Assembly: GCA_026127925.1 (NCBI GenBank)
Contig: JAJSLM010000006.1
Span: 22,302-86,301 of the forward strand
Length of the DNA: 64,000 nt
Reading direction: 5' to 3'
From: Thermoplasmatales archaeon
GTDB lineage: Archaea; Thermoplasmatota; Thermoplasmata; Thermoplasmatales; Thermoplasmataceae
A program made the translations under genes and the position numbers. Numbering within the stretch: position 1 is the stretch's first letter; each line of letters opens with the position of its first letter. Shown here one piece after another: positions 35,858-64,000 of this stretch. A model generated the notes under the pieces. That model saw nothing but the letters and a program-made list of their open reading frames with translations, did no database searches and had not been told where the DNA came from.

Positions 35858-36214
35858 GTAAGCCACCATCGATCTAAACGATTGCGTTCAGATTCAGGAA
35901 ATACTGAAATTGTTACAAAGATTTAAACATGCCTATGGACGACGGTTGTTCATTTTAATTCGGTTAGAAGATTTCTATAGATATATTTTCTAATGGAATT
36001 TAAAAACAATTGATTTTCCGTTCCTCCCTATTTCGACGGAGGTCGAGCACCATGGAGCCTGTTAATGGTAGGGATATATTAAATCTAAGAATCGCGTATA
36101 AAATGTTCCTGAATTCGATAATGAATTGTTAGCGTGATTTTGCTGATGCAAAACAGGTCTATGATAGCTAATTAAGATAACTATTTATACAGATGATGTG
36201 TTATGTTACTAACT

Positions 36215-36811
36215 ATGAAAGCAAATGAGGTATTAAACCTGTTGCGTATTTCCAGAAAAACGCTTCATGTATATGCATCAACAGGCAAAATAAAATTTAC
36301 AGTTATGCCTAATGGCCATTATGATTACAATGATGAGGATGTTTATAAATTATTGAATAAAGATATTAAAAGAAAGACGATCATCTATGCAAGGGTATCA
36401 ACAACAAAGCAGAAGAATGATCTCGAGAACCAGATACAGCAGTTAAAACAATGGTGCTTTATGAATGGTTATACTATCAATGCGATATATTCAGATGTCG
36501 CGTCAGGAATATCGTTCAATAAGAGGAAAGGACTCTTTGAACTGCTCGATGAAATTATAAATTATAGAGTAGAAAAGGTAATAATAACATATAAAGATAG
36601 ATTAAGCAGAGTTGGCTTTGATTTATTTAAGCATCTTTTTGCTAAATTCGGTACAGAGATTGTTGTTATTTCCGATGTAGGTAGTATAAAATTAGATTCA
36701 GAAGAGATTTTTGAGGACATCATAAGTATGCTTCACTGCTATTCCATGAAGATGTATTCAAAGAGAAGAAAGAATTCAATTGAGGTTGGATATGAAGGTA
36801 ACGAGGACTGA
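36215..36811 (+). CDS. tnpA: IS607-type transposase TnpA (MerR-like HTH plus serine recombinase/resolvase domain)
   Basis: IYARVSTTKQ catalytic serine motif and resolvase core (DRLSR); N-terminal HTH. Confidence 0.85.
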   Translation: MKANEVLNLLRISRKTLHVYASTGKIKFTVMPNGHYDYNDEDVYKLLNKDIKRKTIIYARVSTTKQKNDLENQIQQLKQWCFMNGYTINAIYSDVASGISFNKRKGLFELLDEIINYRVEKVIITYKDRLSRVGFDLFKHLFAKFGTEIVVISDVGSIKLDSEEIFEDIISMLHCYSMKMYSKRRKNSIEVGYEGNED

Positions 36812-38036
36812 ACAGATCTTTATCCGAGACAATGGCACAGTATCTGAAATGTGCCATATATCGAAGAATCTCTATAATCAGGTCAATTACATTCTGAGAA
36901 ACCAGTTCTTCAATAAGGAGAAGATGTCTTCTTAGAAGGAACTTGCAAGACAATTCTCAAGGCCATCTGAGATAGAAGAAAACAACAACTTCCAGAAGCT
37001 CCCAGCACAGACAGCACAATGGACAATAAAGAAGGTAAAACAGTCATGGAATTCATTCTTCAAAGCCATGAGATCATGGAAGAAGCATCCGGAATTATTC
37101 AAGGGAGTTCCAAAACCACCAAGATACAAACATAAGGATGGAGAATTCATTCTCGTATTCACCAATCAGCAGTGTAGTATCCGCGATGGTATATTGAGAT
37201 TCCCAAAAATAATGAATCTGGAGGTTAAGACGAGACTAAAAGATGTGAATCTGAGAGAAGTGAGAATAATACCATTGGGGATCGGTTATAATATCGAGAT
37301 AGTGTATGTGAAAGAGATAACAGATACTTCTGAAATAAAGGCAGAGAGGATTATGGGTATTGATATCGGTGTGAGAAACCTCGCAACCATCGGTAACAAC
37401 ATTCCCGAACAGGGAATTGCTGTAAGGGCGGGATTGATCAAGTCAATAAATCAATACTTCAACAAAGAACTTGCAAGATACAGAAGCATAAACGATCTAC
37501 AGGGAAACGAAAGAAAGGACACAAAAAGGATACGAGAGCTCTTCATGAAACGGAACAACAAGATCAAAGACGTAATGCACAAGGTATCCAGATCAATAAT
37601 AGACTATGCAAAGTCGAAGAACATCGATACAATAGTCATAGGGCACAACGATGGATGGAAGCAATCGGTTAACATGGGAACGAAGAACAACCAGAATTTC
37701 GTTCAGCTCCCCTTCGATACATTGATCCATCAGATTAAGTACAAAGGGGAAGAGATCGGAATTAATGTAATTGTACAGAGAGAGGATCACACAAGCAGGT
37801 GTTCATTCCTTGACAATGAAACAATAGAACATCATGACACATACATGGGAAATAGAATAAGGAGAGGCACATTCAGATCGGCTAACGGAACTCTCATCCA
37901 TGCGGATCTCAATGCATCATACAACATAATAAAGAAGGCAATCCCTGAAGCTTTCGCGAACGGGATAGAGGATATCGGGTTATACCCAAGAAGTTTAAGC
38001 ATCAGACAGATGATAACTTCCAAAGGTGGATGTTAA
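36792..38036 (+). pseudogene. tnpB: TnpB (OrfB, RuvC-like RNA-guided nuclease family) interrupted by an in-frame TAG at 36933-36935; a 322-aa ORF resumes at the internal ATG 37068
   Basis: Manual translation from ATG 36792 gives MKVTRTEQIF...ILRNQFFNKEKMSS*KELARQFS...KLPAQTAQWTIKKVKQSWNSFFKAMRSWKK, continuous with the 322-aa ORF in one frame. RuvC-I GIDIGVRN and RuvC-III HADLNASYNI motifs are present. Confidence 0.75.
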
Positions 38037-50382: not shown

Positions 50383-53106
50383 TCATATTACCGATGATAC
50401 CATTGAGTTTCCATTCTGCTTCACAACCTCGAATACGTTATCTGCAGCCGTGTAAAGATCGGTGTGATGTGTAACTATGATCATCTGTGGAACAGGAGTA
50501 TCCTCGCTGCTAAACGTGTACTGTATTATATCCTTCAAGTTGCTCCTTCGATCCTGATCCAGGTAAGTGGTTGGTTCATCCATGATCATTGTTTTTATGT
50601 TTTCCATAACGTATTTTGCAAGTGCTAGTCTCAGGGCAATCGAGAGTGCTGTTTTTTCTCCGCCACTCAGCATATCTACGCTTTCTGTCTGGCCATTCTG
50701 GGATATCTCTATGTTCATGTCCTCGCTGACTTTAACGTCATCAAAATTAAGATTGAAAGAATCTGCGTAATCCATTACTTTTAAGGTTAGAAATTCCGCA
50801 GAATCCTTCCTTATTGCTTTCTGTATGCCGTCACGATCAAAGCACTGCCTGAGTTTTTCCATCTCTGTAATTGCATCGGCCAATCTCTCAAGTTTTTCCT
50901 GTTTAATTTTCAGATCAGATATTTTCACATCAAGTTCTTCGATCTGTTTTTCATAAACCTCTTTTCTTGTCTCTAATTTTGAAATATTTCCTAAGGCATC
51001 CTCATGGTTTTTTTGTGAATCTACTAACATCTTGTCCGTGTTCTTGAACTCGGTTTGGATACTGGGGTAAGATGCGACCGACTTATAAAGTTCCTCGATC
51101 TCCTTGTTCAGATCTGATAATGACGCACTATCTGCTTCTACCCGAGCTCTCACGGATGTAACGTCTGTCTTTATGCCCTGGATCTTTTTATCAAGTCCCT
51201 CCATTTTTTGAATTGTTTCTAACGTAAAACGACCCGGGATAAAACCCAGCTCCAGCTCTATTGTCATGAGATCCTTTTCAATCTCCTCAATGTTTGATAC
51301 TAAGGCACCAGTTTCTTCCTGGATTTTTCCTATATCCATATGAGATAGGCTAATCTTCAGGGATTCATATTTCTGGTAGCTCATTTCCAAATTTTTGAGC
51401 TCTTCTTTCTTCAGATCCTTCTGTTTCTGCTTTTCTGTATAACTCAAATATTCGAATTCAAGTTTCTTGGTATCGTCATTTAATTTCTCGTATTTTTCTC
51501 TGTGAGACTTCAGGTTCTCTGTATCTCTGTAAAAATCGTTAATCTTCCTGCTGTTGAGGAAATCGTTAATTTTGTTAAGTTCTTTCAGTTCATTATTAAT
51601 TTTTTTTACCAGATTATTGTTATCCCCGATCTCGCCATCTATTTTAGAGATTTCATTATTATAGCCTTCCAGGATCACAGCCCTATGTTCGTCGGTTATT
51701 GGTTGCTGGCATAGGGGGCATGTAGTGATGCCTGATATTGTCCCGATTTTCTCTTTAATTATTTTTACCTGATCTTCAAGGCCTCTTATTTCGGAATCTA
51801 GGACCGATTTTTGTTTCTGGTTCTCCTGGAAAAGCTCTCTCTTCTGATTTACTATATCCTCAAGCTTTTCACGGCTATCTATCTCTACACCCAGTACTGC
51901 CTGAATCTCAACTTTCTCGCTAGAAATCCGTTTTTCTATCTTATCTATCTCTTCTTTCTCACTCGATGCGAGTTCCAGTTTCCTCCTGTAATTTTCATAC
52001 GCATCTTTCAGTTCGTCCAATTCCGCTTCAATGGAATCCATCTCTTTTTTGAGAATCAGGTATCTTTCATGCGGTTTTTCGAGTTGTTGAAGTTCGGACT
52101 TCATTTCATTGTATGAGTTAATCTGCTCTTCATTTTTCTTCAGGCGTTCCCTTTTGTCGCTGATCTTATCCTTCTTGCTTAAGTATTCATTTACTCTATC
52201 TTTCTTCTGCAGAAGGGCGCGATCGATGTTCTTCTCGAGGCTATCAGCTCTGGAAGAGAATTCCTCTGTTTTCTGTAAATCTTCCTTGATTCTTTTCTCG
52301 AGCTCTAATCTTTTGTTCTTTTTCTGCTCCAGGGTGTCTGAATCCGCTTTAATTTTATTCAGCTTGCCGAGAAGTCCGTCCCTTTTCTCTTTTGTAATAT
52401 CGAGCTGCGCCTTAATATCTGACGCCTTTTGTGTCGCGGTGGCCAGTTCGGCTAAAGTGTCCTGTACGGACTGATCGATATCGTTCCTTTGATCCTTGGT
52501 TAATTTCAACTCATCCGGTATTCCAAGGAGCAAACTCCTTTTCAAGTCAAGGTCCTTCTTTAGCGTTTTAAGTTCGTCTGCATATTCTGTGAGTACGTCA
52601 AGACCAACAATTTTTCCGAATATCTTTTCGCGCTCAGATTTCGCACTTGACACCAGAGCGTCTATTTCTCCCTGTTCAACAAATACTGAATTAAGGAATA
52701 CTTCTTTATTTATTCCCACGTAATTAGGATCTTCTATGGCTTTGTCTACACCGGAAACATGCCGTGCGATCTCTATTCCGTCCCGAACAAGAACGGCGTC
52801 CCTATCCTTAACATTGCCGTTTTTTCCTATGCTCATCTGCCTTGTTATGAGATAATTGTGATTTCCTATAGTAAAATCCAGAGAGACAGAACAGTCTGTT
52901 TTTCCCCTCTTTACAAGATCCTCTATTTTAGATCCCCGACGTTCGCCAAGGAAAGCGAATTTCATTCCGTCTATTATGCTGCTCTTCCCGGCTCCATTCT
53001 TTCCTATGATTATGTTTACGCCTTTCTCCAGAGATATTTCGGTGTCGTTGTGGGACAGGAAATTATGCAGCTTCAGCCTATTGATTATCATCGTCCTCCA
53101 CTCCAA
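50383..53106 (-). CDS. rad50: DNA double-strand break repair ATPase Rad50
   Basis: Walker A GKNGAGKSS, long coiled coil with CPLCQQPI zinc hook, C-terminal signature/D-loop. Confidence 0.9.
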   Translation of the reverse strand: MEWRTMIINRLKLHNFLSHNDTEISLEKGVNIIIGKNGAGKSSIIDGMKFAFLGERRGSKIEDLVKRGKTDCSVSLDFTIGNHNYLITRQMSIGKNGNVKDRDAVLVRDGIEIARHVSGVDKAIEDPNYVGINKEVFLNSVFVEQGEIDALVSSAKSEREKIFGKIVGLDVLTEYADELKTLKKDLDLKRSLLLGIPDELKLTKDQRNDIDQSVQDTLAELATATQKASDIKAQLDITKEKRDGLLGKLNKIKADSDTLEQKKNKRLELEKRIKEDLQKTEEFSSRADSLEKNIDRALLQKKDRVNEYLSKKDKISDKRERLKKNEEQINSYNEMKSELQQLEKPHERYLILKKEMDSIEAELDELKDAYENYRRKLELASSEKEEIDKIEKRISSEKVEIQAVLGVEIDSREKLEDIVNQKRELFQENQKQKSVLDSEIRGLEDQVKIIKEKIGTISGITTCPLCQQPITDEHRAVILEGYNNEISKIDGEIGDNNNLVKKINNELKELNKINDFLNSRKINDFYRDTENLKSHREKYEKLNDDTKKLEFEYLSYTEKQKQKDLKKEELKNLEMSYQKYESLKISLSHMDIGKIQEETGALVSNIEEIEKDLMTIELELGFIPGRFTLETIQKMEGLDKKIQGIKTDVTSVRARVEADSASLSDLNKEIEELYKSVASYPSIQTEFKNTDKMLVDSQKNHEDALGNISKLETRKEVYEKQIEELDVKISDLKIKQEKLERLADAITEMEKLRQCFDRDGIQKAIRKDSAEFLTLKVMDYADSFNLNFDDVKVSEDMNIEISQNGQTESVDMLSGGEKTALSIALRLALAKYVMENIKTMIMDEPTTYLDQDRRSNLKDIIQYTFSSEDTPVPQMIIVTHHTDLYTAADNVFEVVKQNGNSMVSSVI

Positions 53107-54295
53107 GGGTTCTCTTGAGCCATTTTATTCCATCTTCCTTGGTATTTGCATCCCTTCCGCCCATGTTTGCATAGAAATCCACTGCAAGTTTCGCAGTTTC
53201 AGGACTGTCTGAAAAATAGGAGTTGATGTAATCGCTTATCTTTTCCATGCCAGGTTTTATCTCAACTGTACGCTCTATGCTGTGAAATTCTGGATTCCTG
53301 AAAATTATGTTATCGTAGGTTGCGAGTTTCTCCTTGACTGATTCCCTGCTTCCCTCTCCTGTTATCCTCACCGAGACTACAGGTTTCTTTGTTTCAAAGT
53401 TCATCGAATATTTGTTGATCATGGTATCAATGTCACTGGCATAATTGGAGAAATCAGAATCTATCCTGTACTGGAATCTCACGCTCTTCAGGATCCTTCT
53501 CTCAACCTTTACGTTTCCATCGTCCATCGTCACTATATTTATGGATTTCCCGTTCTTGAGGAAGCCAGAGATCTCGTTTGTGGATTTCATCTCTGTCGAT
53601 CCAGCATATGAAAAAACGGGGTAGGTGCTGTCCCTTAATGCCCAGTCGTGAACGTGGCCAAAGGCGAGGTAGCTGAAGTGCTGCGGCAGTTCCTCGTACC
53701 TGGCCTCACAGGCCTCATCATAAAGAAAGCCCTCTATAGCCTGGTGTGACATCAGAATTGAGTTCTTATAACCTAAAGCCAGTTTGTCGGCCTGCTGATA
53801 AGCCTCGAGTAGTTCAGGTTTTCTCATACCCTTGAGGTTAGATATGCCGGCAATCAGGACTTGTTCATCGTTGATCTCTACAACGTGGTGCTCCAGGCTA
53901 TCCATTCCCAGAAGCTTGATTCCAGCGAAGTCAAATATGCGCGCAGCTGGATAATCCTTTCTCTTCGGGCGGTCGTGGTCACCGAGGATCAGGAAAAAAG
54001 GGATCTTGCGTTCCATGATCGGAAGTATACTGTCTTTGAACTCAGTAAGCGCCCTGTTGCTAGGGCTCCAGGTATCAAAAAGATCCCCCGTATGAATGAT
54101 GAAATCAACATTTTCACGAAGAGCTATATCCATTGCTTCACGGAAAGCATCGTAGAAGTCCTGTTCCCTCTCATCGATCATGTACTGCCTGCTTCCAAGG
54201 TGCGTATCAGAAACATGCATGAACTTGAGCATCCTAATCACCAAGTATTCTTGAGACGCGCTTGAGGTCTTCCTGTGCAGATTTCTTCTTTTCAC
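53078..54295 (-). CDS. mre11: DNA double-strand break repair nuclease Mre11
   Basis: Calcineurin-like phosphoesterase motifs MHVSDTHLG, GDLFD, GDHD; the true start is probably near 54232. Confidence 0.9.
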   Translation of the reverse strand: MKRRNLHRKTSSASQEYLVIRMLKFMHVSDTHLGSRQYMIDEREQDFYDAFREAMDIALRENVDFIIHTGDLFDTWSPSNRALTEFKDSILPIMERKIPFFLILGDHDRPKRKDYPAARIFDFAGIKLLGMDSLEHHVVEINDEQVLIAGISNLKGMRKPELLEAYQQADKLALGYKNSILMSHQAIEGFLYDEACEARYEELPQHFSYLAFGHVHDWALRDSTYPVFSYAGSTEMKSTNEISGFLKNGKSINIVTMDDGNVKVERRILKSVRFQYRIDSDFSNYASDIDTMINKYSMNFETKKPVVSVRITGEGSRESVKEKLATYDNIIFRNPEFHSIERTVEIKPGMEKISDYINSYFSDSPETAKLAVDFYANMGGRDANTKEDGIKWLKRTLGVEDDDNQ

Positions 54296-55787
54296 GCTCT
54301 TCCAGGGCTTCTTTAAGGAGTGGAACGAGGTTCACATCGCCTCCACCTTCCATGCTCTCCCTCTGCCTTATCCTCACGTTCACAGGCATCTTAACAAACT
54401 GTCCAACTAATATCGCTTCACCTATATTCAGTGATGGCAGATCCTGCAGAATCGATTCGCTTATGCTCTCACCGCTCTCTATTATTGCATTTTGATCCAG
54501 AGGGTTTGTTACTCTTAGTATTATTTCGGAATTGCACTGGCTGAGGATATCCTGATCAATCTTTCCGGGTCTCTGCGTTATTATCACAAGAAACAGACCG
54601 AATTTCCTGCCCTCCGATGCGATTTTTCTAATGATCTGTGCTATCTCCGTCTGAGACTTTGGAGGTATGAAATTATGTGCCTCCTCTATGAAGACGAATA
54701 TAGGGTATTTGTACTGGCCTGACATTTTCGCTTCCATCATGGCTGTAAGTACCCTGAGGGAGAAGTAGTTCGCCAGGAACTGGTCGAGGCCAGAGAGATC
54801 GAGAACGGACATAAGTCCGGGTGAAAGATAATCGGTCATGTCGGTCGTTCTTTCTGAAAATATGGATTTTACCTTGGACAGAAATCTCAGTCTTCCAGCC
54901 AGCTTCTTATAATCCTCTGGATCAAGGTTTTCCACCGTGTTCATGAACTCCTGGAAATCCTTCCTACCATGCATTTTTGAAAGTGCGTTCTCAACTGCTT
55001 TTCTCAGTGAGACCCATGATTCCTTTATGCCCATGATCTGGGACAGATCATCTGCGTCAAGATCCGAGAATTTCAGGGTGAACTGATCCACAACACCGTT
55101 CTGGATCGTGTCGTACCTCCCGGTGCTAAGAGGAGTTCTGAATACCTTTATATCGTTCTGGTAGTGTTTCCCAGAGCGGTCCCTCCTCATTAGGACATAA
55201 TCTGCATGTGGATCTAGAACGACTATAGATGCACCCTTCTTGAGAAGTTCCTCCATGATCACGCCTGCTGTGTGGCTCTTTCCTGCCCCGGTCTGTGCAA
55301 TTATTGCGACGTGCCTTCTCATACCGTTTATATTCACCGATACTCTGACATCCGGCCTGTCAGCAAGATAGCCGATATCCAGGGCTTCTTCATCCGATGT
55401 TCGGAATACCCTCTCAAGCAGATCGGAGGGAGCACGGTAGACAGGCGTTCCGGGCTTTACGAGTTCCCTAGAGAGTTCTATATTGTCTCCATCCACTAGT
55501 CCTAAAGTTTTCGCAATACACACGCTTGTTGAGTACTCAAGGTGTGTGGAAACATACTTCGAAACACTTTCGTAGTCAAGTCCTTCATTCAGCAGGTCGC
55601 TCTTCGACTGTATCCCCTCGATCCTTCCCAGGATCTTGCGGTCCTTAAGGTCGATGTATACGTATTCCCATTTTCTCACGTTCAAGTCCTCTGGAATCAC
55701 GAACCTGAAGGAGTCCGAAGTGTTAATGCCAACGACGTAGCCCAGCTTATATTCTGATTCTTGCACGTCTCTCCCCCCTGGTTTCAT
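54234..55787 (-). CDS. herA: HerA-type FtsK/HerA-family DNA helicase
   Basis: Walker A QTGAGKSHT, HAS-barrel N-terminus. Confidence 0.85.
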   Translation of the reverse strand: MKPGGRDVQESEYKLGYVVGINTSDSFRFVIPEDLNVRKWEYVYIDLKDRKILGRIEGIQSKSDLLNEGLDYESVSKYVSTHLEYSTSVCIAKTLGLVDGDNIELSRELVKPGTPVYRAPSDLLERVFRTSDEEALDIGYLADRPDVRVSVNINGMRRHVAIIAQTGAGKSHTAGVIMEELLKKGASIVVLDPHADYVLMRRDRSGKHYQNDIKVFRTPLSTGRYDTIQNGVVDQFTLKFSDLDADDLSQIMGIKESWVSLRKAVENALSKMHGRKDFQEFMNTVENLDPEDYKKLAGRLRFLSKVKSIFSERTTDMTDYLSPGLMSVLDLSGLDQFLANYFSLRVLTAMMEAKMSGQYKYPIFVFIEEAHNFIPPKSQTEIAQIIRKIASEGRKFGLFLVIITQRPGKIDQDILSQCNSEIILRVTNPLDQNAIIESGESISESILQDLPSLNIGEAILVGQFVKMPVNVRIRQRESMEGGGDVNLVPLLKEALEEREKKKSAQEDLKRVSRILGD

Positions 55788-56802
55788 AGAGGCTTATGCC
55801 TATCTCCTTTTCAAATGCACGCATAAAAACATTCTCCGTTTCTTCGCTCCTGAATTTTACTAGATCATCGACCCTTGAGAGCCAGATATTGTGTACCTTA
55901 AGCCCGCCATATCCCCAGAATAGCAGGCTGCGTATATCCTCCCTTAGATCTTCATTTCCGTCGTTTTTTGATGCAACGATCTCCACCTTAAATGGTAAAT
56001 CCCTTGTATCCGGCAGTATGTGTGTCGTAATTATAGGGATCTCCATCTGTCGATCGCCAGTGGCAAGCTTCATAGTGTGGGATACTGGAAATGAATATCC
56101 GGGATAAGTGGCCATGGACTTTATTATGAAATGGTCAGTGCTGCGGCTCTTCCTCTCAAGATCGATTTTTTTACCTTCCGCCTGCACCTGGGACAGAAGG
56201 AAATTCCTGAATATGGAACTGTCAGAACTCTTTGCTATAAATATCAGGGGTATATTTTTTCTAACAGCAAGATCGACCATCGTTAAGAGCGACGTGAAAT
56301 ATTCATTCCTAAACTCCTTAAAATCATCAGCATCTATGGCAATCTCTTCCGAAAATATTCTTCCGCTTAATGAACCATCCACCAAAATATAATCCGGACT
56401 CTCGTTTTCAAGCATTTTCAGTATGCTCAGGTGTTCGGAGTGCTCCATGCTCATTATGGTGTATCTCTGCACATCCTCACGGGCGACAACCTGCAACTTT
56501 GTCAGAAAACTTTCGTAGTTTTTGTTCTGGATGCTTGTAAGGGAGCGGAAAAGCATCAGTTTTTTTCCATTGTATAACTCTCTTATGATTTCAGAGCTAT
56601 CCGTTGCTGAGATCATGCCATGTGGTTCGGAATAATTTGGCATAGGGAAGAAATACTTGTCGAAGATCTCGGAATACAGTGATCTTCTCCAGGAATCTTT
56701 TGGTATCATCAGGTCGCCTTTGATCTGCTCCCTGTTCTTTCGTAAAAATTCAACATAATCGTAGAATCCTGTACTCATTTCTGCAATGATTATGAACACC
56801 AC
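55747..56802 (-). CDS. nurA: NurA 5'-3' nuclease
   Basis: Position immediately upstream of and overlapping herA; size and general NurA-like pattern. Confidence 0.6.
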   Translation of the reverse strand: MVFIIIAEMSTGFYDYVEFLRKNREQIKGDLMIPKDSWRRSLYSEIFDKYFFPMPNYSEPHGMISATDSSEIIRELYNGKKLMLFRSLTSIQNKNYESFLTKLQVVAREDVQRYTIMSMEHSEHLSILKMLENESPDYILVDGSLSGRIFSEEIAIDADDFKEFRNEYFTSLLTMVDLAVRKNIPLIFIAKSSDSSIFRNFLLSQVQAEGKKIDLERKSRSTDHFIIKSMATYPGYSFPVSHTMKLATGDRQMEIPIITTHILPDTRDLPFKVEIVASKNDGNEDLREDIRSLLFWGYGGLKVHNIWLSRVDDLVKFRSEETENVFMRAFEKEIGISLYETRGERRARIRI

Positions 56803-57928: not shown

Positions 57929-58258
57929 CAGACACCTTTAATGATTTAATTTTCCCCAGTTTAACGAGAGCTAATCACGTTTCATAGTTCTACTGACCCC
58001 TGGGGAATTTTTCGCCCACCGCTGATCGAGTGATCACTGCCTGGATTTCGGCCAGCTGCTGAACTCGAGGCCCATGGTTGGGCGAATTTTATTCCCATGT
58101 CGTCATATGTGATCATGAATCACACATACTATTTTATGGGACAAATACCAGAGCGTAATCGCATAATAATAATTTACCCCAGTCAATCAAGTATATCTAT
58201 TAACGATAACGAAGAAAAATTATAATGATAATAACTATGTCGTCTGGTTGAAAAGGGG

Positions 58259-58331
58259 CTTGTGGTCTAGCGGTTATGACATCGCTCTCACACAGCGAAG
58301 GTCGCCGGTTCAAATCCGGCCAAGCCCATTC
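58259..58331 (+). tRNA. tRNA-Val (anticodon CAC), no encoded CCA
   Basis: Manual fold: acceptor GGGCTTG/CAAGCCC plus discriminator A, anticodon stem TCGCT/AGCGA with loop CTCACAC, T-arm GCCGG-TTCAAAT-CCGGC. Confidence 0.85.
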
Positions 58332-58550
58332 TATATACGGTTTAGTTTTTTACAATATTACCTAAAATACTAGACCTGCAATCAACTAAATGGTACATGT
58401 ATCAAGGAGTATTTTCAGGTTTGCTTATATACTCACGGTTTACATTTTGAAATATAATAATGGTCGAATACAAGGACACAGAACATTAAACATCACCAGT
58501 ATCTTTTGTTTCATCGTGTGTCCTTTAATAGCCTATTAGGTTATTGAATA

Positions 58551-58961
58551 CTAACTTCTAAAATTAGGGAACTTACCCCTGTGATGCAGTTCAAATTGTT
58601 TCTTTGGAGGTTCAGTTTTTTGGTTGGTGTTATATTTAGGTTTATTCTCATAAATTAACTGCTTCTCTATTTTGAATGCAACGTCCTTTGGCACCTCTGT
58701 TATGTAAACTGACTTTCCTGTCCCTTCCATACATGCATCTAAAACTGTCCAGTCATGGTAATAACGGGCTCTTATACCTCCTGCCCACAATTTTCCATCC
58801 TTCTCTCTTTGTTTTTGAGTGGTGGCACCGATGTAAAGCGGTACATTATTTGAATCCGCAACCACATATACGCAAGGGAATTCATATTTCCCTTCATCAT
58901 TTTCTATTATTTCCTTCCAACTGGAAAACCTCAACCACTTCAATTCTATCCGAGCTGCCAC
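58551..58961 (-). CDS. GIY-YIG nuclease-domain protein
   Basis: CVYVVADSNNVPLYIGATT (GIY-x10-YIG), then conserved R (GGIRARYYH) and E/N (IYENKPKYN). Confidence 0.55.
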   Translation of the reverse strand: MAARIELKWLRFSSWKEIIENDEGKYEFPCVYVVADSNNVPLYIGATTQKQREKDGKLWAGGIRARYYHDWTVLDACMEGTGKSVYITEVPKDVAFKIEKQLIYENKPKYNTNQKTEPPKKQFELHHRGKFPNFRS

Positions 58962-59130
58962 TGACTGTTCAATATTCTTGAGACATATAAATCCTTCCTC
59001 TTAAAATAGGACCAAAATCTAATAGCCATTAACATAAGCGTTCTCGGATATATTCCTATCATTAAAAATAAGCAGACACATCGGTTGCGTCAATAACCAA
59101 TGAATAAATAGGTTCATAAGATTCATTTGC

Positions 59131-59652
59131 ATGGAAGCTTCAGAGAAAGTAGTAGAAAGTTATTTCAGATATGTGAAAGGATACTTCACAATTCCCAATC
59201 TAAGATGTAGGGGTCAAAAAGAAGTTGACCTAATAGGAATGAAGGAAAGTGATGGAAAAATTCAAAGAATTCATGTAGAAGTGAGCGTAACAACATCCGG
59301 TGAATTCAATAAAATAAACGCTAAGCCTTATTCTGAAGCTAAGAAAAAAACTAGAGGTGGATCTGCATCGGAGAGAGTTAAGATAGGTTACTTCACCGAT
59401 AGCAAATTTAACGATTCAAATGTGTTGTCGACGCTAAAAGGTTATGGATTTTCAAAAGATAATTACGAAAAGATAATTGTATCATGGGACTGGGAACCGG
59501 CAGTAGAACCCATTTCTAAAAAAAAGGAGATCAAGCTCCTAAGATTTAAGGATATACTGAAAGAGATGATGGATGTATTTGGAAAGAAGGAATCCTATTT
59601 CTCAGATGATACGGTCAGATTGCTGCAACTTCTAAAAAAAAGCAGGGTTTAA
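59131..59652 (+). CDS. Hypothetical protein, possible Hjc/PD-(D/E)xK-like nuclease fold
   Basis: KEVDLIGMKESDGKIQRIHVEVSV resembles the Hjc xDLIA...IEVK core, but the lysine is replaced by serine. Confidence 0.3.
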   Translation: MEASEKVVESYFRYVKGYFTIPNLRCRGQKEVDLIGMKESDGKIQRIHVEVSVTTSGEFNKINAKPYSEAKKKTRGGSASERVKIGYFTDSKFNDSNVLSTLKGYGFSKDNYEKIIVSWDWEPAVEPISKKKEIKLLRFKDILKEMMDVFGKKESYFSDDTVRLLQLLKKSRV

Positions 59653-59724
59653 TTGAAAGACCTTTGTGAAATTTAGCTTCTTCTTATATGATATGAGCAG
59701 GATTAATATTACTTCAAAAGAAGG

Positions 59725-59886
59725 TCACTCAATCTTCCTAACCACAATCTCCCCTTTAATTTCATAAAATCCTATATGTTCCGATTCTGAAACATTCAAC
59801 TTCTCTGCTATCTCTTTTGGTAAAGTGATCCTCAATGATGAGCCCCTGGAAGATGTCTTCGATACTGCGATTAGTTTATCTGACAT
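59725..59886 (-). CDS. Small AbrB/MazE/SpoVT-type (swapped-hairpin) DNA-binding protein, 53 aa; not in the ORF track
   Basis: Manual translation: MSDKLIAVSKTSSRGSSLRITLPKEIAEKLNVSESEHIGFYEIKGEIVVRKIE; the RGSSLRITLPKEIAEKL pattern is typical of AbrB-like antitoxins/regulators. Confidence 0.5.
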   Translation of the reverse strand: MSDKLIAVSKTSSRGSSLRITLPKEIAEKLNVSESEHIGFYEIKGEIVVRKIE

Positions 59887-60144
59887 TGGGAGGGTAATAA
59901 ATTAAACTTTTCATTAAAATTTTTCCAGTAAAAAGTAGTTTCTACACTTACCTATTTAGAGATGGATGAAGAGGTTCCATTTTCTTAGGTTCCTCTATTT
60001 CCAAGATTGTCTTAAGGAAAGACCAATTTAGTTCAAAAATAGGCGCGGCAGACCATGAACATAGAAATTATCATGAAGGTTGACGCTTTATTGACAAAAT
60101 TTATGTTCAGATACCGGACATGTTCATGGAAGGTTACCTTAATC

Positions 60145-60693
60145 TTACACAGAATTATGGAAACTACGATCATTCTTGAATGAATTTATCCAGTTATCGT
60201 AAATGTTCTTATTTATTTGCTTAGGGGAGTCAACTGATCGGCAAACATAGTATTCGGATTCTTTGTGTTTTCCGATGTAAAACTGTTTTTTGTTCATATT
60301 GTATTGCTCGACTTCTTCTCTACGGAATAAGAAGATCTTGGTGTCTATCGATATTCTTGAATTTTCTCCTTTTTCTCCTTTGGGGATGAAAGGGAAGTAC
60401 ACAGTAAGAACAAGGAAATCTAGGTGTTGATCGATTTTGACAGGTTTGCTAAACCAGCCATGAAATTCTACTTTGTATTTCTTTTGATCTGATGGGGATG
60501 TATCATAAGACCTTGAACTTTTTATCTGAAAGGTTACACTTTTTCTGGTTTCTATATTGAGTAATGCTACATCAAAGTACTTCTGTTGCCTGCTGGTCGG
60601 AATAACCACAGAATACTTATCTTTGTCGAAGCTCTTTGAGAGAGTATCAGCAAATTCAAACTCAGAATACTCTAAAGTAAAAAATGGCTTCAA
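60145..60693 (-). CDS. Hypothetical protein downstream of the methyltransferase (candidate nuclease/accessory subunit)
   Basis: ORF only; weak D...E.K-like FDVALLNIETRK stretch. Confidence 0.3.
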   Translation of the reverse strand: MKPFFTLEYSEFEFADTLSKSFDKDKYSVVIPTSRQQKYFDVALLNIETRKSVTFQIKSSRSYDTSPSDQKKYKVEFHGWFSKPVKIDQHLDFLVLTVYFPFIPKGEKGENSRISIDTKIFLFRREEVEQYNMNKKQFYIGKHKESEYYVCRSVDSPKQINKNIYDNWINSFKNDRSFHNSV

Positions 60694-61028
60694 GAGAATG
60701 TTCTCCCGTATTCTAACATATCAACAGTCATAATGTTTAGCAATTTAACTCTTCTCATACCCTTATCTTACGTTGACCTGAGTAAGAAAGTAGGCTTATC
60801 TTTCCATATAACTGGCTTTCATTGGCAAAATGACATTGGTGCCCTAATGGACCATTTTACTCTTTTATTTATTACAAACACATACTGATAGGACATTAAC
60901 CATAATTATGTGTAGGACTAACGATACCTCTATTTTCTTCCAATATCAAGAATATCGTTGAGTTTCCTACATTCTCTAATGGCATTTTTACAGTTTCTAT
61001 TCTTTTTACGATACGATTCTTAAAGGCA

Positions 61029-61931
61029 TCAAGTGGATATGTTCTCTCCGTTTAAATTCTTACTAAATAAAAATTCTCTATCTAAATCTGCATTTCGAGG
61101 AGTCCACAAATTATTGAGATTTTCAGTGAAATAATAATCCCTGCGGTATTTATCTATGCTATCGCTTGGTCTTAATTCCCTTAATCTTTCTTCTATCTTT
61201 TTAGTATTTACTGGGTCGATTTCAATTCCAATATACTTTCTCGATAGCTGTTTCGCTACCACTAGAGTCGTACCCGTCCCTGCAAACGGATCAAAAACCA
61301 AATCTCCAATATTGCTGGAAGATAATATTATCCTCAGCAGAAGAGCTACAGGAGATTGTTGTTTGTGAAATCTTTCACCATTTTCCATCCTTAGTGCTTC
61401 ATCACCAGCAAAATATCCTGATGTTAGTTCCCTAATATCATCCCATACGTCAGTAACATACATACCATTTGGTCTCTCATACCTTTCCGTAATTAATCTT
61501 GGTGGATTTATCCTAAGTTTATTAAAAACTCTTGGTTTATCGCCCTTTGTAGCAAATACAATTATTTGATAATGCAATCCAAATTTGTTATTCTGTGGAA
61601 CAGCAGACGTTTTCTTTTTCCATATAATTAAGTTCTGGTAAGTCCAGCCGGTATCTTCAAGAACCTTCATTACTCGAGCTGTATTCTTCTCTCTTTGCAT
61701 AAAATATATTGAACCACCATCAGAAGTCCTATTATATATCAATCTGCAAACCCTTTTCATGAATATCCAATATTCCTCTTCCGGGATATCATCATCGCTA
61801 ACTCTGTAATCTTTTCCTTGATTGAAAGGGGGGTCTAAAAAAGATAGATCTATTTGAAGGTCTTTTTTTGGAGTTTTCGATAGAAACTTTACGCAATCGT
61901 CATTAATTATCATGTTTTCCTTCATTATCAT
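61029..61931 (-). CDS. Beta-class DNA methyltransferase (N6-adenine or N4-cytosine)
   Basis: Motif IV DPPF near the N-terminus and motif I LVFDPFAGTGTT near the C-terminus (the IV-then-I order defines the beta class). Confidence 0.85.
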   Translation of the reverse strand: MIMKENMIINDDCVKFLSKTPKKDLQIDLSFLDPPFNQGKDYRVSDDDIPEEEYWIFMKRVCRLIYNRTSDGGSIYFMQREKNTARVMKVLEDTGWTYQNLIIWKKKTSAVPQNNKFGLHYQIIVFATKGDKPRVFNKLRINPPRLITERYERPNGMYVTDVWDDIRELTSGYFAGDEALRMENGERFHKQQSPVALLLRIILSSSNIGDLVFDPFAGTGTTLVVAKQLSRKYIGIEIDPVNTKKIEERLRELRPSDSIDKYRRDYYFTENLNNLWTPRNADLDREFLFSKNLNGENIST

Positions 61932-63418
61932 GCCTCACCTAACAACGTTTTTAAGTCTAACTTGAAGAATTCTCCCTCTTTTATTATCAATTTATACTGT
62001 AATAGCTTTTCAATTATACTTTCACCGTTTGTCATAGGAAATATTTCTGAAAGCTTTTCCTTTAACTCTGGTTCGGTATGTTTCCTATCAGACAGATAAT
62101 AAAGAACCATTGCACATAGAAAGTCAGAAGTTTCTATAACGTTCTTGTTTTTATTGAATTTTTTTATCAAGATAGAGGCGTATCTCCCTATTTGATAAAG
62201 ATTCCTTTTTAAATTTATGTCGCTTCTCACTATCACTCTGCTAAATAAATTCCTCACATCCTTATCTGGCTTGACTCCGTATACCTTGAAAATAGATACA
62301 GCATAATCTTCTTCTTTTTCAGATAAATAATTTAGCAACTGGATAGAATCGTCAAAAATATTGTCATAATCAGCTTGAGCTTTTCTAATGACGTCCAAAT
62401 TCGATTCAATAGTTATGGTTTCAGTATTTGCTCTCCAAAGAGCCTTCTTCTTGGCATATCCTAAATTCATCTTATTGAGATTCACCGAGCTTACAACGAC
62501 TCTCTTTTCAGTAATTATAAGCTTTGCATGAAGGGGATGCTTTGGTTTTCTTAGTTCAATGTTATTAGCCATCAATCTTGGGTATAGTTCTCTTATCCGT
62601 TCATTGAAATCTTGGCTTTCGCTACCTGTAAGTATTTTGATTGTTTTACCCTTTATAGAATTAGTAATCAAAAATGGTATGATTGCTGTATCTGTGAAAC
62701 TTTCCGTGGATATATAAACATAATCAGAGGCTTCGCTTATTACCATCTCCCATAAATCTCTGGCTTTGCACTCAATAGGTGCAATGTAAACCTTGTCTTC
62801 AATAGATGTAATGTTCTTACATATCTCTGCGGGATAATCCCTAATCCAATGTAACTTCACTTCCGGTTCGGTTATTGTCCTTGGTGCAACGAACAAAGCT
62901 TCTTTACTGTCATATGTCGTCTGCTCTACTAAATTCTTAATACTCCCTTCTCCAAATAATGCCAATAAAGTCAGAAATTTTTCATTAAACTCTTTGATTT
63001 TTCCTTCTTCTTTGTATATTAGCATGGCGTCTAGTTCCGGTTCTTCCGTAAGATTGGCAGATAAGGATATCGCTACGTTATCCGTTACTAAAAATTTACC
63101 ATGAAATGAATACCACCGACCTATCGCCGTTGTTGTTCTCTCAGGGTCTCCTATTCCCCATTTTGAAAAATATACCTTAGCTCCATTGGTCTTTATTCTT
63201 TCAATCCTGTCCTTTACTTTGTCCCTAATATCCTCATTTATACTATCGTATGGTAAAGTAAAAATCTCAACTTCGATACCCTTTGTCAAAATGCTGTCAA
63301 TAGCGTCATATATAAATTCATTATGAATTTGAAATACAGCTATCCTAACGTATTTTTTTGCCTCTTTAATCTCTTTAACCACGCGGTCAATCACATCTAG
63401 ACTAAACTCGAATTCCAT
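61928..63418 (-). CDS. Phospholipase-D-superfamily nuclease with two HKD motifs and a ~190-aa C-terminal extension (candidate restriction endonuclease)
   Basis: HGKFLVTDNVAISLSANLT and HAKLIITEKRVVVSSVNLN (HxKx4D/Ex6SxN twice); no TM segments; 4-nt overlap with the MTase gene. Confidence 0.75.
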   Translation of the reverse strand: MEFEFSLDVIDRVVKEIKEAKKYVRIAVFQIHNEFIYDAIDSILTKGIEVEIFTLPYDSINEDIRDKVKDRIERIKTNGAKVYFSKWGIGDPERTTTAIGRWYSFHGKFLVTDNVAISLSANLTEEPELDAMLIYKEEGKIKEFNEKFLTLLALFGEGSIKNLVEQTTYDSKEALFVAPRTITEPEVKLHWIRDYPAEICKNITSIEDKVYIAPIECKARDLWEMVISEASDYVYISTESFTDTAIIPFLITNSIKGKTIKILTGSESQDFNERIRELYPRLMANNIELRKPKHPLHAKLIITEKRVVVSSVNLNKMNLGYAKKKALWRANTETITIESNLDVIRKAQADYDNIFDDSIQLLNYLSEKEEDYAVSIFKVYGVKPDKDVRNLFSRVIVRSDINLKRNLYQIGRYASILIKKFNKNKNVIETSDFLCAMVLYYLSDRKHTEPELKEKLSEIFPMTNGESIIEKLLQYKLIIKEGEFFKLDLKTLLGEA

Positions 63419-63475
63419 TGTTATCCCTTTATCTATTGTTTTTACAATTAATTGTAGTTAAACTCGATGATACGG

Positions 63476-63799
63476 TTACCTAGTACAAGATTTCTTAATA
63501 TAGTATGTTTCAGACCTATTTACTGTCTCAACATAACGAGTTTCTATTTTACTATCAGAAACCATACTATCTAAAAGCTTACCAAAAGAGAATCCTGTCA
63601 TTAACGCGTCAAACATTTTCCAACCTATAGTATCTCTAGGCTTTGTAAAAGACAAATTTGCGTTCAGTGCCATTTGTATTTCTGTCTGAGTCCGAGCTTT
63701 GCAATCACCAAGTAATTTTTCAATAGCGCCCTTTAAAGTGGTTTCAGTATATCCTTTCTTAAATTCGTCAGAACTTATTGCCATGAATAGCCATAACAT
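63476..63799 (-). CDS. Hypothetical protein
   Basis: ORF 57 nt upstream of the PLD-nuclease gene on the same strand. Confidence 0.3.
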   Translation of the reverse strand: MLWLFMAISSDEFKKGYTETTLKGAIEKLLGDCKARTQTEIQMALNANLSFTKPRDTIGWKMFDALMTGFSFGKLLDSMVSDSKIETRYVETVNRSETYYIKKSCTR

Positions 63800-64000
63800 T
63801 ATTAAATAAAATGCTTACTTACGATGCTTAATACAATTTATTTCCCTTTGAGGTTGTCTCCAAAAATTATATCAGCACCAGAAAAATCTTTCACCAATCT
63901 TGGTCATCATCCTCATCATCAGAGCCTAGATGGTCGATTATCCATGCTAACCCCTTCGCAATATCCTTATTCTTCTGCCATTGAAGTTTTTCCTTTTCCA

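Follow-up and report, generated by a model that had tools for sequence, protein, structure and literature searches.

A candidate Type II restriction-modification family pairing a predicted single-chain, double-HKD PLD nuclease with a beta-class DNA methyltransferase

Introduction

In a Thermoplasmatales archaeon, a gene for a PLD-family protein with two HKD motifs adjoins a gene for a DNA methyltransferase (MTase), close to the end of the 64,000-nt stretch of DNA analysed here (the window). This raises the question of whether the two genes form a restriction-modification (R-M) system and, if so, of what type. PLD-type restriction and defence nucleases are known, namely, BfiI/BmrI, NgoAVII/CglI, SauUSI, and MtsD, in which two identical subunits build a single active site (PMC4081073, PMC4267654, PMC5737866). 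The first-pass annotation of the window saw in the pair, a nuclease wired to an MTase on an archaeal island, a candidate R-M or defence module of an unusual kind. The analysis presented here points the same way, with the conserved and permuted linkage of the two genes across genomes as its strongest support, and an R-M function of the pair is, judging from the sequences, very likely.

Results

Genomic setting

The module sits on a recently acquired, foreign low-GC island of approximately 8 kb that abuts a tRNA-Val gene (Table 1), at which the GC content drops from 42-46% in the chromosome to 34% in the island. No att repeat of the tRNA-Val 3' end was found in the extended contig, where an integrase is absent as well, and searches of a phage collection, a plasmid collection, and IMG/VR gave no matches for the module in mobile carriers.

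Table 1. Window coordinates of the predicted R-M genes, their domains and motifs, and the chromosomal edge of the island
Feature	Position	Strand	Remarks
tRNA-Val(CAC), chromosomal edge of low-GC island	58256..58328	+	ARAGORN
M gene, beta-class amino-DNA methyltransferase, 300 aa	61029..61931	-	PF01555, E 1.8e-44
MTase motif I FDPFAGTGTT (residues 213-222)	61266-61295	-	
MTase motif IV DPPF (residues 33-36)	61824-61835	-	
ATGA stop/start overlap of R and M genes	61928..61931	-	
R gene, predicted restriction endonuclease	61928..63418	-	496 aa, single-chain tandem-HKD PLD-family nuclease
C-terminal winged-helix domain (residues 426-496)	61931..62143	-	AF2 models
Helical linker (residues 356-425)	62144..62353	-	AF2 secondary structure
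PLD lobe 2 (residues 205-355)	62354..62806	-	holds HKD motif 2
HKD motif 2, HAKLIITEKRVVVSSVN (residues 297-313)	62480-62530	-	H297, K299, E304, S311, N313
PLD lobe 1 (residues 1-135)	63014..63418	-	holds HKD motif 1
HKD motif 1, HGKFLVTDNVAISLSAN (residues 106-122)	63053-63103	-	H106, K108, D113, S120, N122

The PLD protein

A regular-expression search for HxK(x4)[DE](x6)SxN returned exactly two matches in the PLD protein, which bears out the initial observation of two complete motifs on one chain, and the Pfam family PLDc_2 matched the protein twice (E 2.2e-25). Among 33 homologues, H106, K108, S120, N122, H297, K299, S311, and N313 are invariant, as are, outside the HKD motifs, E128 and D130 in lobe 1 and W328, N331, T332, and E333 in lobe 2. 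The protein has no membrane segment (the highest Kyte-Doolittle 19-residue mean is 1.04), as had been claimed, and the accompanying claim that it is not a cardiolipin synthase also stands: no lipid-synthase family (Cls, Pss) scored above the cut-off in NCBIfam or Pfam, and the family matches are confined to the generic PLDc_2 plus weak ones to NucT, DrmC, and DpdK. A sequence search against PDB chains retrieved NucT alone, with an E-value of 0.34, and is uninformative beyond the PLD superfamily; BfiI was absent.

The AF2 model (pLDDT 91) comprises two PLD lobes, a helical linker, and a C-terminal winged helix. The lobes are predicted to pack like those of single-chain PLD enzymes, giving a bilobal protein with one inter-lobe active site. 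The linker carries a basic net charge and includes a 36-residue helix (residues 386-421), and the winged helix is net acidic with a hydrophobic third helix and is, as modelled, unlike a typical sequence-reading domain. The catalytic lobes, with the family-specific invariant loops GDPERTTTAVGRWY, STESFTD, and WRANTE, are better conserved than the winged helix. Two expectations about the C-terminal part had to be revised: the extension, first given as about 190 aa, is really about 140 aa, since the PLD fold stops near residue 355, and the structure check for a B3-like fold returned the linker and winged helix instead.

The methyltransferase and the gene junction

Both motifs on which the beta-class assignment had been based, DPPF and FDPFAGTGTT, were located in the MTase (Table 1), and the former lies upstream of the latter, which is the beta-class order. 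PADLOC gave a Type II MTase match (3e-39), and the nearest solved relatives in the PDB are CcrM (1e-21) and M.MboIIA (5e-20). Among the MTases of the module, motif IV reads DPPF in 29 of 35 and DPPY in the other 6. The DPP[FY] motif, together with the kinship to CcrM and M.MboIIA, makes the enzyme look like an m6A methylase, and some JGI names for it read 'adenine-specific'.

The R/M junction is GCATGATAATG. The 4-nt overlap of the R stop with the M start that was originally described holds if the first ATG is the start; one gene caller chose the second in-frame ATG, 6 nt downstream (298 aa). The same 4-nt overlap is called in close relatives at 83-87% identity.

Linkage of the two genes across genomes

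An alignment-based homologue scan, with one genome per species, yielded 54 loci/genomes from about 20 archaeal and bacterial lineages, with PLD homologues at 37-69% identity. The carriers are Thermoplasmata, Micrarchaeota, Methanoperedens, Bathyarchaeia, Nitrosopumilaceae, Asgard lineages, Methanosuratincola, and Altiarchaeales, as well as WOR-3, Anaerolineae/Chloroflexota, Ignavibacteria, Bacteroidota, Spirochaetes, Cloacimonadota, and Saccharibacteria. At E<=1e-30, the PLD family itself forms a compact set of 89 clusters out of 1.84 billion representatives.

An orthologous MTase (54-73% identity) adjoins the PLD gene in 47 of the 47 loci that can be judged; in the remaining 7 of the 54, the gene is truncated by a contig end or stops 0-252 nt short of one. 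The gene order is R>M in 37 of these loci, M>R in 7, and divergent in 3. R and M co-diverge: across pairs of loci, their identities are correlated with a Mantel r of 0.74, a value reached by none of 2000 permutations. When the ORFs flanking the 54 loci were clustered, the only recurrent partner outside conserved synteny was a second N6_N4 MTase (6 loci); neither a Type I MTase near the module nor an ATPase or helicase within +/-5 kb recurs.

In terms of gene content, the module has the attributes of a Type II system, i.e., separate and adjacent R and M genes that are inherited together, with no NTPase or translocase gene. It is likely, on these grounds, that the two genes make up a self-contained Type II R-M system, and there is a strong expectation that the nuclease acts as a single chain and independently of ATP.

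Predicted recognition site

The observed/expected ratio of GGCC in module-bearing loci has a median of 0.26 and lies below 0.6 in 90% of them, against a median of 0.87 and 21% below 0.6 in 73 random metagenome contigs (Fisher p 2e-14) and 44% below 0.6 in GC-matched controls (n=32), in a comparison in which the module loci are phylogenetically clustered and their taxon mix differs from that of the controls. The other 15 palindromic tetramers are alike in module loci and controls, and the depletion is equal over all 16 contexts of NGGCCN. The R-M genes themselves contain 16 GGCC against 100 expected, with none at all in 42 of 57 modules, and they are short of GGCC even in modules whose flanks are not depleted. 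In the window, the island holds one GGCC, at its edge, against 5.8 expected, and the host chromosome does not avoid the word (142 observed vs 134 expected). From this pattern of avoidance, the chance that GGCC is the recognition site of the pair is put at about even. GGCC avoidance is in general fairly common in lower-GC genomes.

GGCC holds no adenine, so if it is the site, the MTase would be an N4-cytosine enzyme; the avoidance thus predicts m4C, despite the DPPF motif. A further candidate, CGATCG, which published work predicts as the site of the MTase beside Aba4572I, was rejected because it shows no avoidance either in the window (9 observed vs 10.8 expected) or in the pooled loci (90 observed vs 110 expected).

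Alternative readings of the gene pair

Several features would suit a pair that is not a classical double-strand cutter, e.g., a nicking or exonucleolytic PLD enzyme (PLD3/4-like) that breaks down unmethylated DNA once some other trigger has acted, or a selfish addiction cassette in which the winged helix mainly autoregulates the operon. PLD3 and PLD4, which are 5'-3' exonucleases, are among the best structural matches; the winged helix, besides its acidic charge, is weakly conserved and has no polar recognition helix; and the fold also resembles that of TrmB-family regulators, in which a winged helix and a long helix are joined to a PLD-like domain. Set against this is the fact that a single 4-bp palindrome is strongly and specifically avoided both in hosts with the module and in the module genes, which would be the product of sequence-specific restriction, and a purely regulatory protein is disfavoured by the invariant catalytic residues. 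This explanation is considered quite unlikely.

Alternatively, the protein could be a Type IV, modification-dependent endonuclease whose winged helix senses N6-methyladenine, with the MTase unrelated or non-conflicting. A C-terminal winged helix on a PLD nuclease is the domain logic of the PLD-wH fusions Aba4572I and CbaI, in which two HxK-type motifs are mentioned as well. These belong to a set of 27 PLD-wH proteins (Helbrecht et al. 2024, PMC11037411) that was identified by way of DpnI-like winged helices and read as Type IV enzymes dependent on 6mA, none of them purified; the toxicity of CbaI was Dam-dependent, and Aba4572I, from an Anaerolineaceae bacterium, lies beside an amino-MTase. The present family, too, occurs in Anaerolineae and Chloroflexota. 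It differs in always being accompanied by one orthologous beta-class MTase, whereas the published PLD-wH proteins are mostly stand-alone or near Type I MTases, which do not recur here. An MTase that co-diverges with its neighbour in all judgeable loci and in three gene orders is the signature of a protecting methylase rather than of a stand-alone Type IV enzyme, and when the PDB was searched with a profile of the C-terminal domain, neither DpnI nor any other 6mA reader came up at E<=10. Moreover, the toxicity of Aba4572I was seen in Dam- cells and was lower in Dam+ cells (PMC11037411), opposite to what 6mA dependence would lead one to expect; such behaviour might be explained if Aba4572I were a methylation-blocked member of the family described here. 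Altogether, the modification-dependent interpretation is judged very unlikely.

The pair might also be a fragment of an ATP-dependent system (DISARM, NgoAVII/CglI-type, or MANTIS/SauUSI-like) with its motor encoded elsewhere. All characterised PLD restriction nucleases besides BfiI/BmrI need a helicase-like ATPase (PMC4267653, PMC5737866), and PADLOC matched the PLD protein to DrmC, weakly and partially (1.7e-13, 48.6 bits, lobe 2 only), and to DpdK (2e-4). The helicase or ATPase partner suspected beyond position 64000 is nevertheless absent from the contig (L001), which stretches 9.4 kb past the window end, and such a gene is recurrent in none of the 54 loci. DrmC, R.NgoAVII, and MtsD, furthermore, have one HKD motif per chain and act as dimers, in contrast to the two motifs per chain found here. 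A DISARM system was rejected for want of drmA/drmB equivalents in the window, L001, or related loci, given that the DrmC match is partial, and an NgoAVII/CglI-type system for want of a helicase gene and a B3 domain. The fragment hypothesis is accordingly regarded as highly improbable.

A role for the PLD protein in lipid metabolism, as public annotation would have it (as a phospholipase or a cardiolipin or phosphatidylserine synthase), with an incidental MTase neighbour, is scarcely credible, given the lack of a membrane segment and of a lipid-synthase family match, a C-terminal winged helix, a strict, permuted, and co-diverging linkage to a DNA MTase for which a lipid enzyme offers no rationale, and a patchy, HGT-type distribution with a low-GC island, unlike that of a housekeeping lipid enzyme.

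Discussion

Proposed mechanism

In the preferred reading, that of a Type II R-M pair, the beta-class amino-methyltransferase would mark host DNA and the PLD protein would cut DNA that lacks the mark. One chain would supply the inter-lobe active site for which BfiI, Nuc, SauUSI, and MtsD need two subunits, and would suffice for it because the two HKD lobes are predicted to pack as the halves of single-chain PLD enzymes. By analogy with BfiI (PMC4081073, PMC2853115), cleavage would be metal-independent and would pass through a covalent phospho-histidine intermediate, with the single site cutting the strands sequentially, one and then the other. Sequence reading would fall to some part of the PLD lobes, the linker, or the winged helix. 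Were the site the palindrome GGCC, a monomer would need to bind in both orientations, nicking each strand in turn. Such behaviour has been reported for the monomeric Type II enzymes BcnI, MvaI, and MspI.

The description in full, i.e., a widespread family in which a single-chain, ATP-independent (and, by PLD chemistry, metal-independent), pseudo-dimeric PLD nuclease specific for GGCC is paired with an N4-cytosine MTase bearing DPPF/Y, is offered tentatively, the combination of all its parts being somewhat doubtful.

Comparison with known systems

The Type IIS enzymes BfiI/BmrI have one HKD motif per chain and form homodimers, whereas the present protein carries both HKD lobes on one chain, and sequence similarity between it and BfiI is undetectable. 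As a homodimer, BfiI has a pair of B3-like DNA-binding domains and engages two sites; here, a linker and a winged helix are found in their place. Nuc (pKM101) and NucT (H. pylori) are non-specific single-HKD homodimers that are secreted or periplasmic and have neither an MTase partner nor an appended domain. PLD3/PLD4 and Tdp1 are, like the protein described here, single-chain tandem PLD enzymes acting on nucleic acids, but they serve in eukaryotes as ssDNA/RNA exonucleases or in repair, share 11-14% identity with it, and have no MTase or winged helix. NgoAVII/CglI, SauUSI, MANTIS MtsD, and DISARM DrmC resemble the present pair as PLD restriction/defence nucleases of which some are paired with an MTase; they differ in their single HKD motif per chain, their dimeric state, and their need for a helicase-like ATPase, no gene for which is linked here.

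If the assignment of GGCC is right, the pair would share its site and type of methylation with the archaeal m4C systems SuaI/M.SuaI and PhoI/M.PhoI (PMC5809426, PMC11033074). SuaI is not counted as a member of the PLD family, since sequence analysis placed R.SuaI in the PD-(D/E)XK superfamily (PMC2441816).

Significance

PLD-type restriction enzymes as such are already known; the novelty lies in a predicted, uncharacterised R-M family with both HKD motifs on a single chain, i.e., a new variant. It raises the question of how one asymmetric monomer with one active site and a single appended domain would cut both DNA strands, perhaps at a palindrome, and, if the prediction is true, cutting of a palindrome by one PLD site on one chain would be mechanistically new. 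A survey of archaea based on REBASE counted 5 Type II MTases and 0 Type II REases per Thermoplasmatales genome and described REases as under-detected (PMC10609329). The partner methylases of the present family would be counted as orphans because the nuclease is annotated only as 'PLD-like' or 'cardiolipin synthase-like', so that the family, if real, would explain part of the apparent surplus of 'orphan' Type II methylases in archaea. The nuclease would then also represent an EDTA-resistant HaeIII isoschizomer from acidophiles and thermophiles, and a metal-independent, acid- or thermo-tolerant 4-bp cutter would be of practical use.

Neighbouring genes and irregular loci

The 107-aa and 182-aa ORFs beside the module, once suggested as members of the same operon, are better left out of it: the former recurs in only one close relative among the module loci, and the latter, which is separated from the MTase gene by 335 nt, recurs in none and occurs elsewhere in unrelated defence islands. 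Searches of the small neighbouring ORFs (107, 115, 182, 173, and 350 aa, and the ORFs of relatives) against Pfam, NCBIfam, PADLOC, and PHROGs gave nothing, except for a MazE/AbrB fold in 53- and 55-aa ORFs and a sub-threshold GIY-YIG match in a 136-aa ORF. In some MAG loci (L029, L044), the MTase gene is broken next to an apparently intact PLD gene. A broken MTase is unexpected for an active R-M pair, and several of the assemblies in question are error-prone long-read MAGs.

Linkage of the PLD gene to a DNA methyltransferase gene

An alignment-driven scan with one genome per species yielded 54 loci that span about 20 lineages of archaea and bacteria, and in which methyltransferase (MTase, M) orthologues were located by tblastn with the MTase of the window as query. 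An MTase orthologue (54-73% identity) directly adjoins the PLD gene (R) in 47 of the 54 loci, and in the remaining seven (L039, L040, L043, L047, L048, L053, and L055) a contig end either truncates the PLD gene or is 0-252 nt away from it. The genes are arranged as R then M (37 loci), M then R (seven), or divergently (three), with gaps of mostly 20-140 nt. Pairwise identities of R and M co-vary (Mantel r 0.74, reached in 0 of 2000 permutations), the MTase being more conserved than the PLD protein (mean pairwise identity 0.63 vs 0.49). Such a strict, order-permuted, and co-diverging pair with a patchy cross-domain distribution is the classical signature of Type II restriction-modification (R-M), and the comparison of sequences thus supports a two-gene Type II R-M system. 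The central interpretation of the first-pass annotation, i.e., a nuclease and an MTase forming an unusual R-M module, is therefore upheld, mainly by comparative evidence. The PLD family is discrete, cross-domain, and horizontally spread, and is mislabelled as a lipid enzyme in current annotation.

Clustering of the flanking ORFs within 5 kb revealed no other recurrent partner besides Methanoperedens host synteny and a second MTase. The 107-aa and 182-aa ORFs, initially proposed as possible operon members, do not belong to the module: the small neighbours in the window (107, 182, 173, and 136 aa) are all missing from the 54 loci, and among Thermoplasmatales relatives a single contig carries the 107-aa ORF and no contig the 182-aa ORF. 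In these relatives, the module is accompanied by an AbrB/MazE-like 55-aa gene and a 115-aa gene. In L028, L041, L046, L049, L051, L052, and L053, an intact MTase gene lies beside a PLD gene that is fragmented or has an internal deletion, and in L029 and L044 a split MTase gene lies beside an apparently intact PLD gene; these could reflect real R-gene decay or assembly errors, and are given little weight since many of the genomes are draft MAGs.

The second MTase, a different N6_N4 enzyme of 385-460 aa, adjoins the module in six loci, in some cases with an N-terminal UPF0758/helix-hairpin-helix domain, and is the only MTase seen in L039. It could add a second specificity or methylate in a strand-specific manner. 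A sequence identical to the 182-aa ORF occurs as LVQ96_06670 in a Thermoplasmatales archaeon MAG, and just four homologue clusters were found for this ORF among 5.8 billion proteins. Homologues (e.g., in L060) lie in other defence-type islands beside a Schlafen/AlbA_2 protein, and also near an unrelated 497-aa tandem-PLD protein with a weak Regulator_TrmB Pfam match in its N-terminal region. Behind the tandem-PLD protein come a 375-aa ORF and an SF1-type helicase of 898 aa; these three may constitute a separate uncharacterised PLD-helicase system.

Features of the window and of related loci (window coordinates unless a locus is named)
Feature	Position	Strand	Remark
Archaeal Pus10	34.3-35.5 kb		
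IS607-family transposase and TnpB homologue	36203-38036	+	
Double-strand-break repair operon	50383-56802	-	50.4-56.8 kb
Rad50	50383-53106	-	repair operon
Mre11	53078-54295	-	repair operon
HerA	54234-55787	-	repair operon
351-aa ORF	55747-56802	-	NurA position; no NCBIfam match
tRNA-Val(CAC)	58256-58328	+	at GC drop
136-aa ORF	58551-58961	-	in island
173-aa ORF	59131-59652	+	in island
SpoVT/AbrB gene	59725-59886	-	
182-aa ORF	60145-60693	-	ORF listing; 335-nt gap from MTase ORF
300-aa MTase ORF	61029-61931	-	ORF listing
496-aa PLD ORF	61928-63418	-	ORF listing
107-aa ORF	63476-63799	-	ORF listing
SpoVT/AbrB gene	L001 8957-9124		
182-aa ORF homologue	L060 5001-5525		
Second MTase	L006 50-997		
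Second MTase	L021 414-1796		
Second MTase	L027 4967-6124		
Second MTase	L030 10800-11957		
Second MTase	L039 1516-2769		
Second MTase	L041 6599-7981		

Module genes, nuclease family, and predicted structure

The HxK(x4)[DE](x6)SxN pattern is matched exactly twice in the 496-aa protein (HGKFLVTDNVAISLSAN at residues 106-122 and HAKLIITEKRVVVSSVN at residues 297-313), which contains two PLDc_2 stretches (Pfam, E 2.2e-25) and no membrane helix (highest 19-residue Kyte-Doolittle mean 1.04). The 300-aa protein is an N6_N4_Mtase (E 1.8e-44) in which DPPF (residues 33-36) precedes FDPFAGTGTT (213-222), the order of the beta class. The two HKD motifs in one chain, the lack of a transmembrane segment, and the MTase motifs had all been read correctly from the DNA. 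The same holds for the 4-nt stop/start overlap: at the R/M junction (GCATGATAATG), the ATGA overlap is real, provided that the first ATG is the M start. One gene caller chose a second ATG 6 nt downstream; the 4-nt overlap is likewise called in relatives at 83-87% identity. The C-terminal extension, first estimated at about 190 aa, is shorter (about 140 aa), since the PLD fold extends to about residue 355.

A search of 5.8 billion proteins with the PLD protein returned 360 matches, of which the best 120 are nearly all full-length (about 500 aa), come from Cuniculiplasma, Metallosphaera, Nitrosopumilaceae, Altiarchaeales, WOR-3, and Anaerolineaceae, and are named only 'PLD-like domain-containing' or 'cardiolipin synthase-like'. 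The two HKD motifs do not vary across 33 diverse members, and neither do the family-specific stretches GDPERTTTAVGRWY ahead of HKD1, STESFTD, and WRANTE behind HKD2. When 1.84 billion cluster representatives were searched exhaustively with a profile, 89 proteins reached E<=1e-30 and 928 reached E<=1e-3. By these searches, the family is compact and set apart from generic PLDs.

In the AlphaFold2 model, which is confident (pLDDT 91, pTM 0.88), a helical segment separates lobe 1 (residues 1-135) from lobe 2 (205-355). Behind lobe 2 come a helical region with one helix of 36 residues (386-421) and a helix-helix-helix-hairpin unit (430-487). Its structural matches are 7e0m phospholipase D (29.6), PLD4 exonuclease (28.8), vaccinia F13 (28.6), PssA (25.9), per lobe Nuc (19.3) and NucT (18.8), both at 19-23% identity, SauUSI (16.9), BfiI (13.6), and R.NgoAVII (13.2), with Foldseek in agreement. 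Based on these matches, the two lobes are predicted to form a single inter-lobe active site within one chain; the modelled fold by itself does not tell a DNA substrate from a lipid. In distant homologues, identity to the window protein is 57% and 48% in the PLD lobes and 32-35% in the helical region and winged helix. A net negative charge (9 K+R vs 13 D+E) marks the winged helix, with mostly hydrophobic conserved positions in its third helix, unlike the helical linker, which is net basic.

Proposed mechanism and relation to known systems

Directly established are two invariant HKD motifs in one soluble chain, an obligate partner MTase, and no linked ATPase; a bilobal fold with an appended winged helix is predicted from the model. 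By analogy to BfiI chemistry, cleavage would be metal-independent and proceed via a covalent phospho-histidine intermediate, with one histidine as the nucleophile and the other as the general acid, and the lone active site would cut both strands one after another (PMC4081073, PMC2853115). If the recognition site is palindromic, a monomer would have to bind it in two orientations. Such binding of palindromes has been reported for the monomeric enzymes BcnI, MvaI, and MspI. Instead of a monomer, the protein may form a dimer via the long helix.

Among Type II, PLD-based, ATP-independent enzymes, BfiI/BmrI are functional analogues. However, BfiI has one HKD motif per chain, dimerises, and carries a B3 domain, whereas the window protein has two HKD motifs in one chain and no B3 domain; its C-terminal unit is a winged helix rather than the B3-like fold considered at first. 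NgoAVII/CglI, SauUSI, MtsD, and DISARM all require a helicase-like ATPase, and none is present at this module. A look beyond position 64000 for such a partner had been suggested, and L001, a Logan contig with an identical PLD gene, extends the window by 9.4 kb. Upstream of the PLD gene, this stretch contains no helicase or ATPase and nothing besides small ORFs (102/107, 115, and 55 aa), an ORF of 319-350 aa with no family match, and a small-molecule-type SAM methyltransferase.

The closest published architecture is that of the PLD-wH endonucleases (Helbrecht et al. 2024, PMC11037411), a set of 27 proteins, none purified, that were proposed to act as Type IV enzymes dependent on 6mA. These are mostly stand-alone or near Type I MTases, whereas the present family always occurs with one orthologous beta-class MTase; a profile search of the PDB at E<=10 showed no DpnI similarity of its C-terminal domain. 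One PLD-wH protein, Aba4572I from an Anaerolineaceae bacterium, adjoins an amino-MTase. In E. coli, its induction was toxic to Dam- cells and less so to Dam+ cells, contrary to the methylation-dependent behaviour claimed for the class (PMC11037411). This would fit a methylation-blocked enzyme, and Aba4572I might belong to the present family.

The general idea of diverse PLD REases is not new, as a 2014 review noted that REBASE contained more than 40 putative PLD REases of 'different organizations'. No restriction enzyme with tandem HKD motifs in a single chain was found to have been characterised or described, and this nuclease architecture is so far uncharacterised. A REBASE-based archaeal survey reported five Type II MTases and no Type II REases per Thermoplasmatales genome, and stated that REases are under-detected (PMC10609329); families like the present one are likely part of this gap. 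The general understanding of R-M systems is not overturned by these findings.

GGCC avoidance and the predicted recognition site

Word avoidance was assessed as the observed count against a second-order Markov expectation, with 73 of 80 control contigs, drawn from metagenomes by a translation-GTPase motif, in the comparison. GGCC separates module loci from controls (Fisher p 2e-14, Mann-Whitney p 6e-13), whereas the other 15 palindromic tetramers behave alike in both. CCGG and GCGC are near 1 in the module-locus sequences (0.89 and 0.88 in the module genes). Depletion is even across the 16 NGGCCN contexts (0.23-0.35), and what is avoided is thus the tetramer as such. Some loci are almost free of GGCC (L051, 1 observed vs 34 expected; L052, 2 vs 55; L044, 0 vs 27), and it is absent from 42 of 57 modules, including ones with undepleted flanks (L003, L010, and L001). 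The window chromosome shows no depletion, and the pattern in the window fits a recently arrived element carrying, or long living under, GGCC restriction.

GGCC observed relative to the Markov expectation
Sequences	Observed	Expected	Ratio	Below 0.6	Below 0.3
54 loci and window, pooled (685 kb)	567	1546	0.37	49/55	
PLD and MTase genes	16	100	0.16		
Window chromosome (1-58250)	142	134			
Low-GC island (window 58330-64000, L001 7342-15090)	1 (island edge)	5.8			
Module loci			0.26 (median)	90%	56%
73 control contigs			0.87 (median)	21%	7%
32 GC-matched controls (GC<=0.52)			0.63 (median)	44%	12.5%

Based on this avoidance in hosts, modules, and the island, GGCC is predicted as the recognition site, with chances that we put at about even. 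As GGCC lacks adenine, an amino-MTase protecting it must make m4C, as do M.SuaI and M.PhoI (PMC5809426, PMC11033074). Against GGCC stand I) MTase motif IV, which is DPPF or DPPY, II) the closest solved MTase relatives, which are the adenine enzymes CcrM and M.MboIIA, III) GGCC avoidance being fairly common anyway in lower-GC genomes, and IV) the phylogenetic non-independence of the module loci. The architecture and the GGCC/m4C prediction are directly testable. CGATCG, the REBASE-predicted site for the MTase of Aba4572I, was rejected as the site here, as it is not avoided in these sequences.

The island and its surroundings

GC content falls from 42-46% to 34% at about 58.3 kb, exactly at the tRNA-Val gene, and the low-GC stretch ends about 8 kb from the tRNA (near L001 7.2 kb). 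Neither an integrase nor a repeat of the tRNA-Val 3' end was detected in the window and L001. Two SpoVT/AbrB genes (MazE-antitoxin fold; 53 and 55 aa, 51% identical) bracket the module, and homologues accompany it in Cuniculiplasma (L002) and in the Thermoplasmatales-type contigs L056-L058, but do not occur with it in distant lineages. The two genes could be passengers of the island or encode a lineage-specific regulator. The 136-aa ORF has a sub-threshold GIY-YIG nuclease match (E 0.002), and the 173-aa ORF has no family match and, by eye, a D...E-x-(S/K)-like pattern; elsewhere, both ORFs are unlinked to the module.

The window is archaeal. Outside the island, it contains an archaeal Pus10 and an archaeal double-strand-break repair operon, herA-mre11-rad50, with a 351-aa ORF whose presumed NurA identity follows from its position only. 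A second low-GC patch, of about 36.5% GC, contains an IS607-family serine transposase (202 aa, E 2e-55) and, behind it, a homologue of the RNA-guided endonuclease TnpB (322 aa, E 7e-39).
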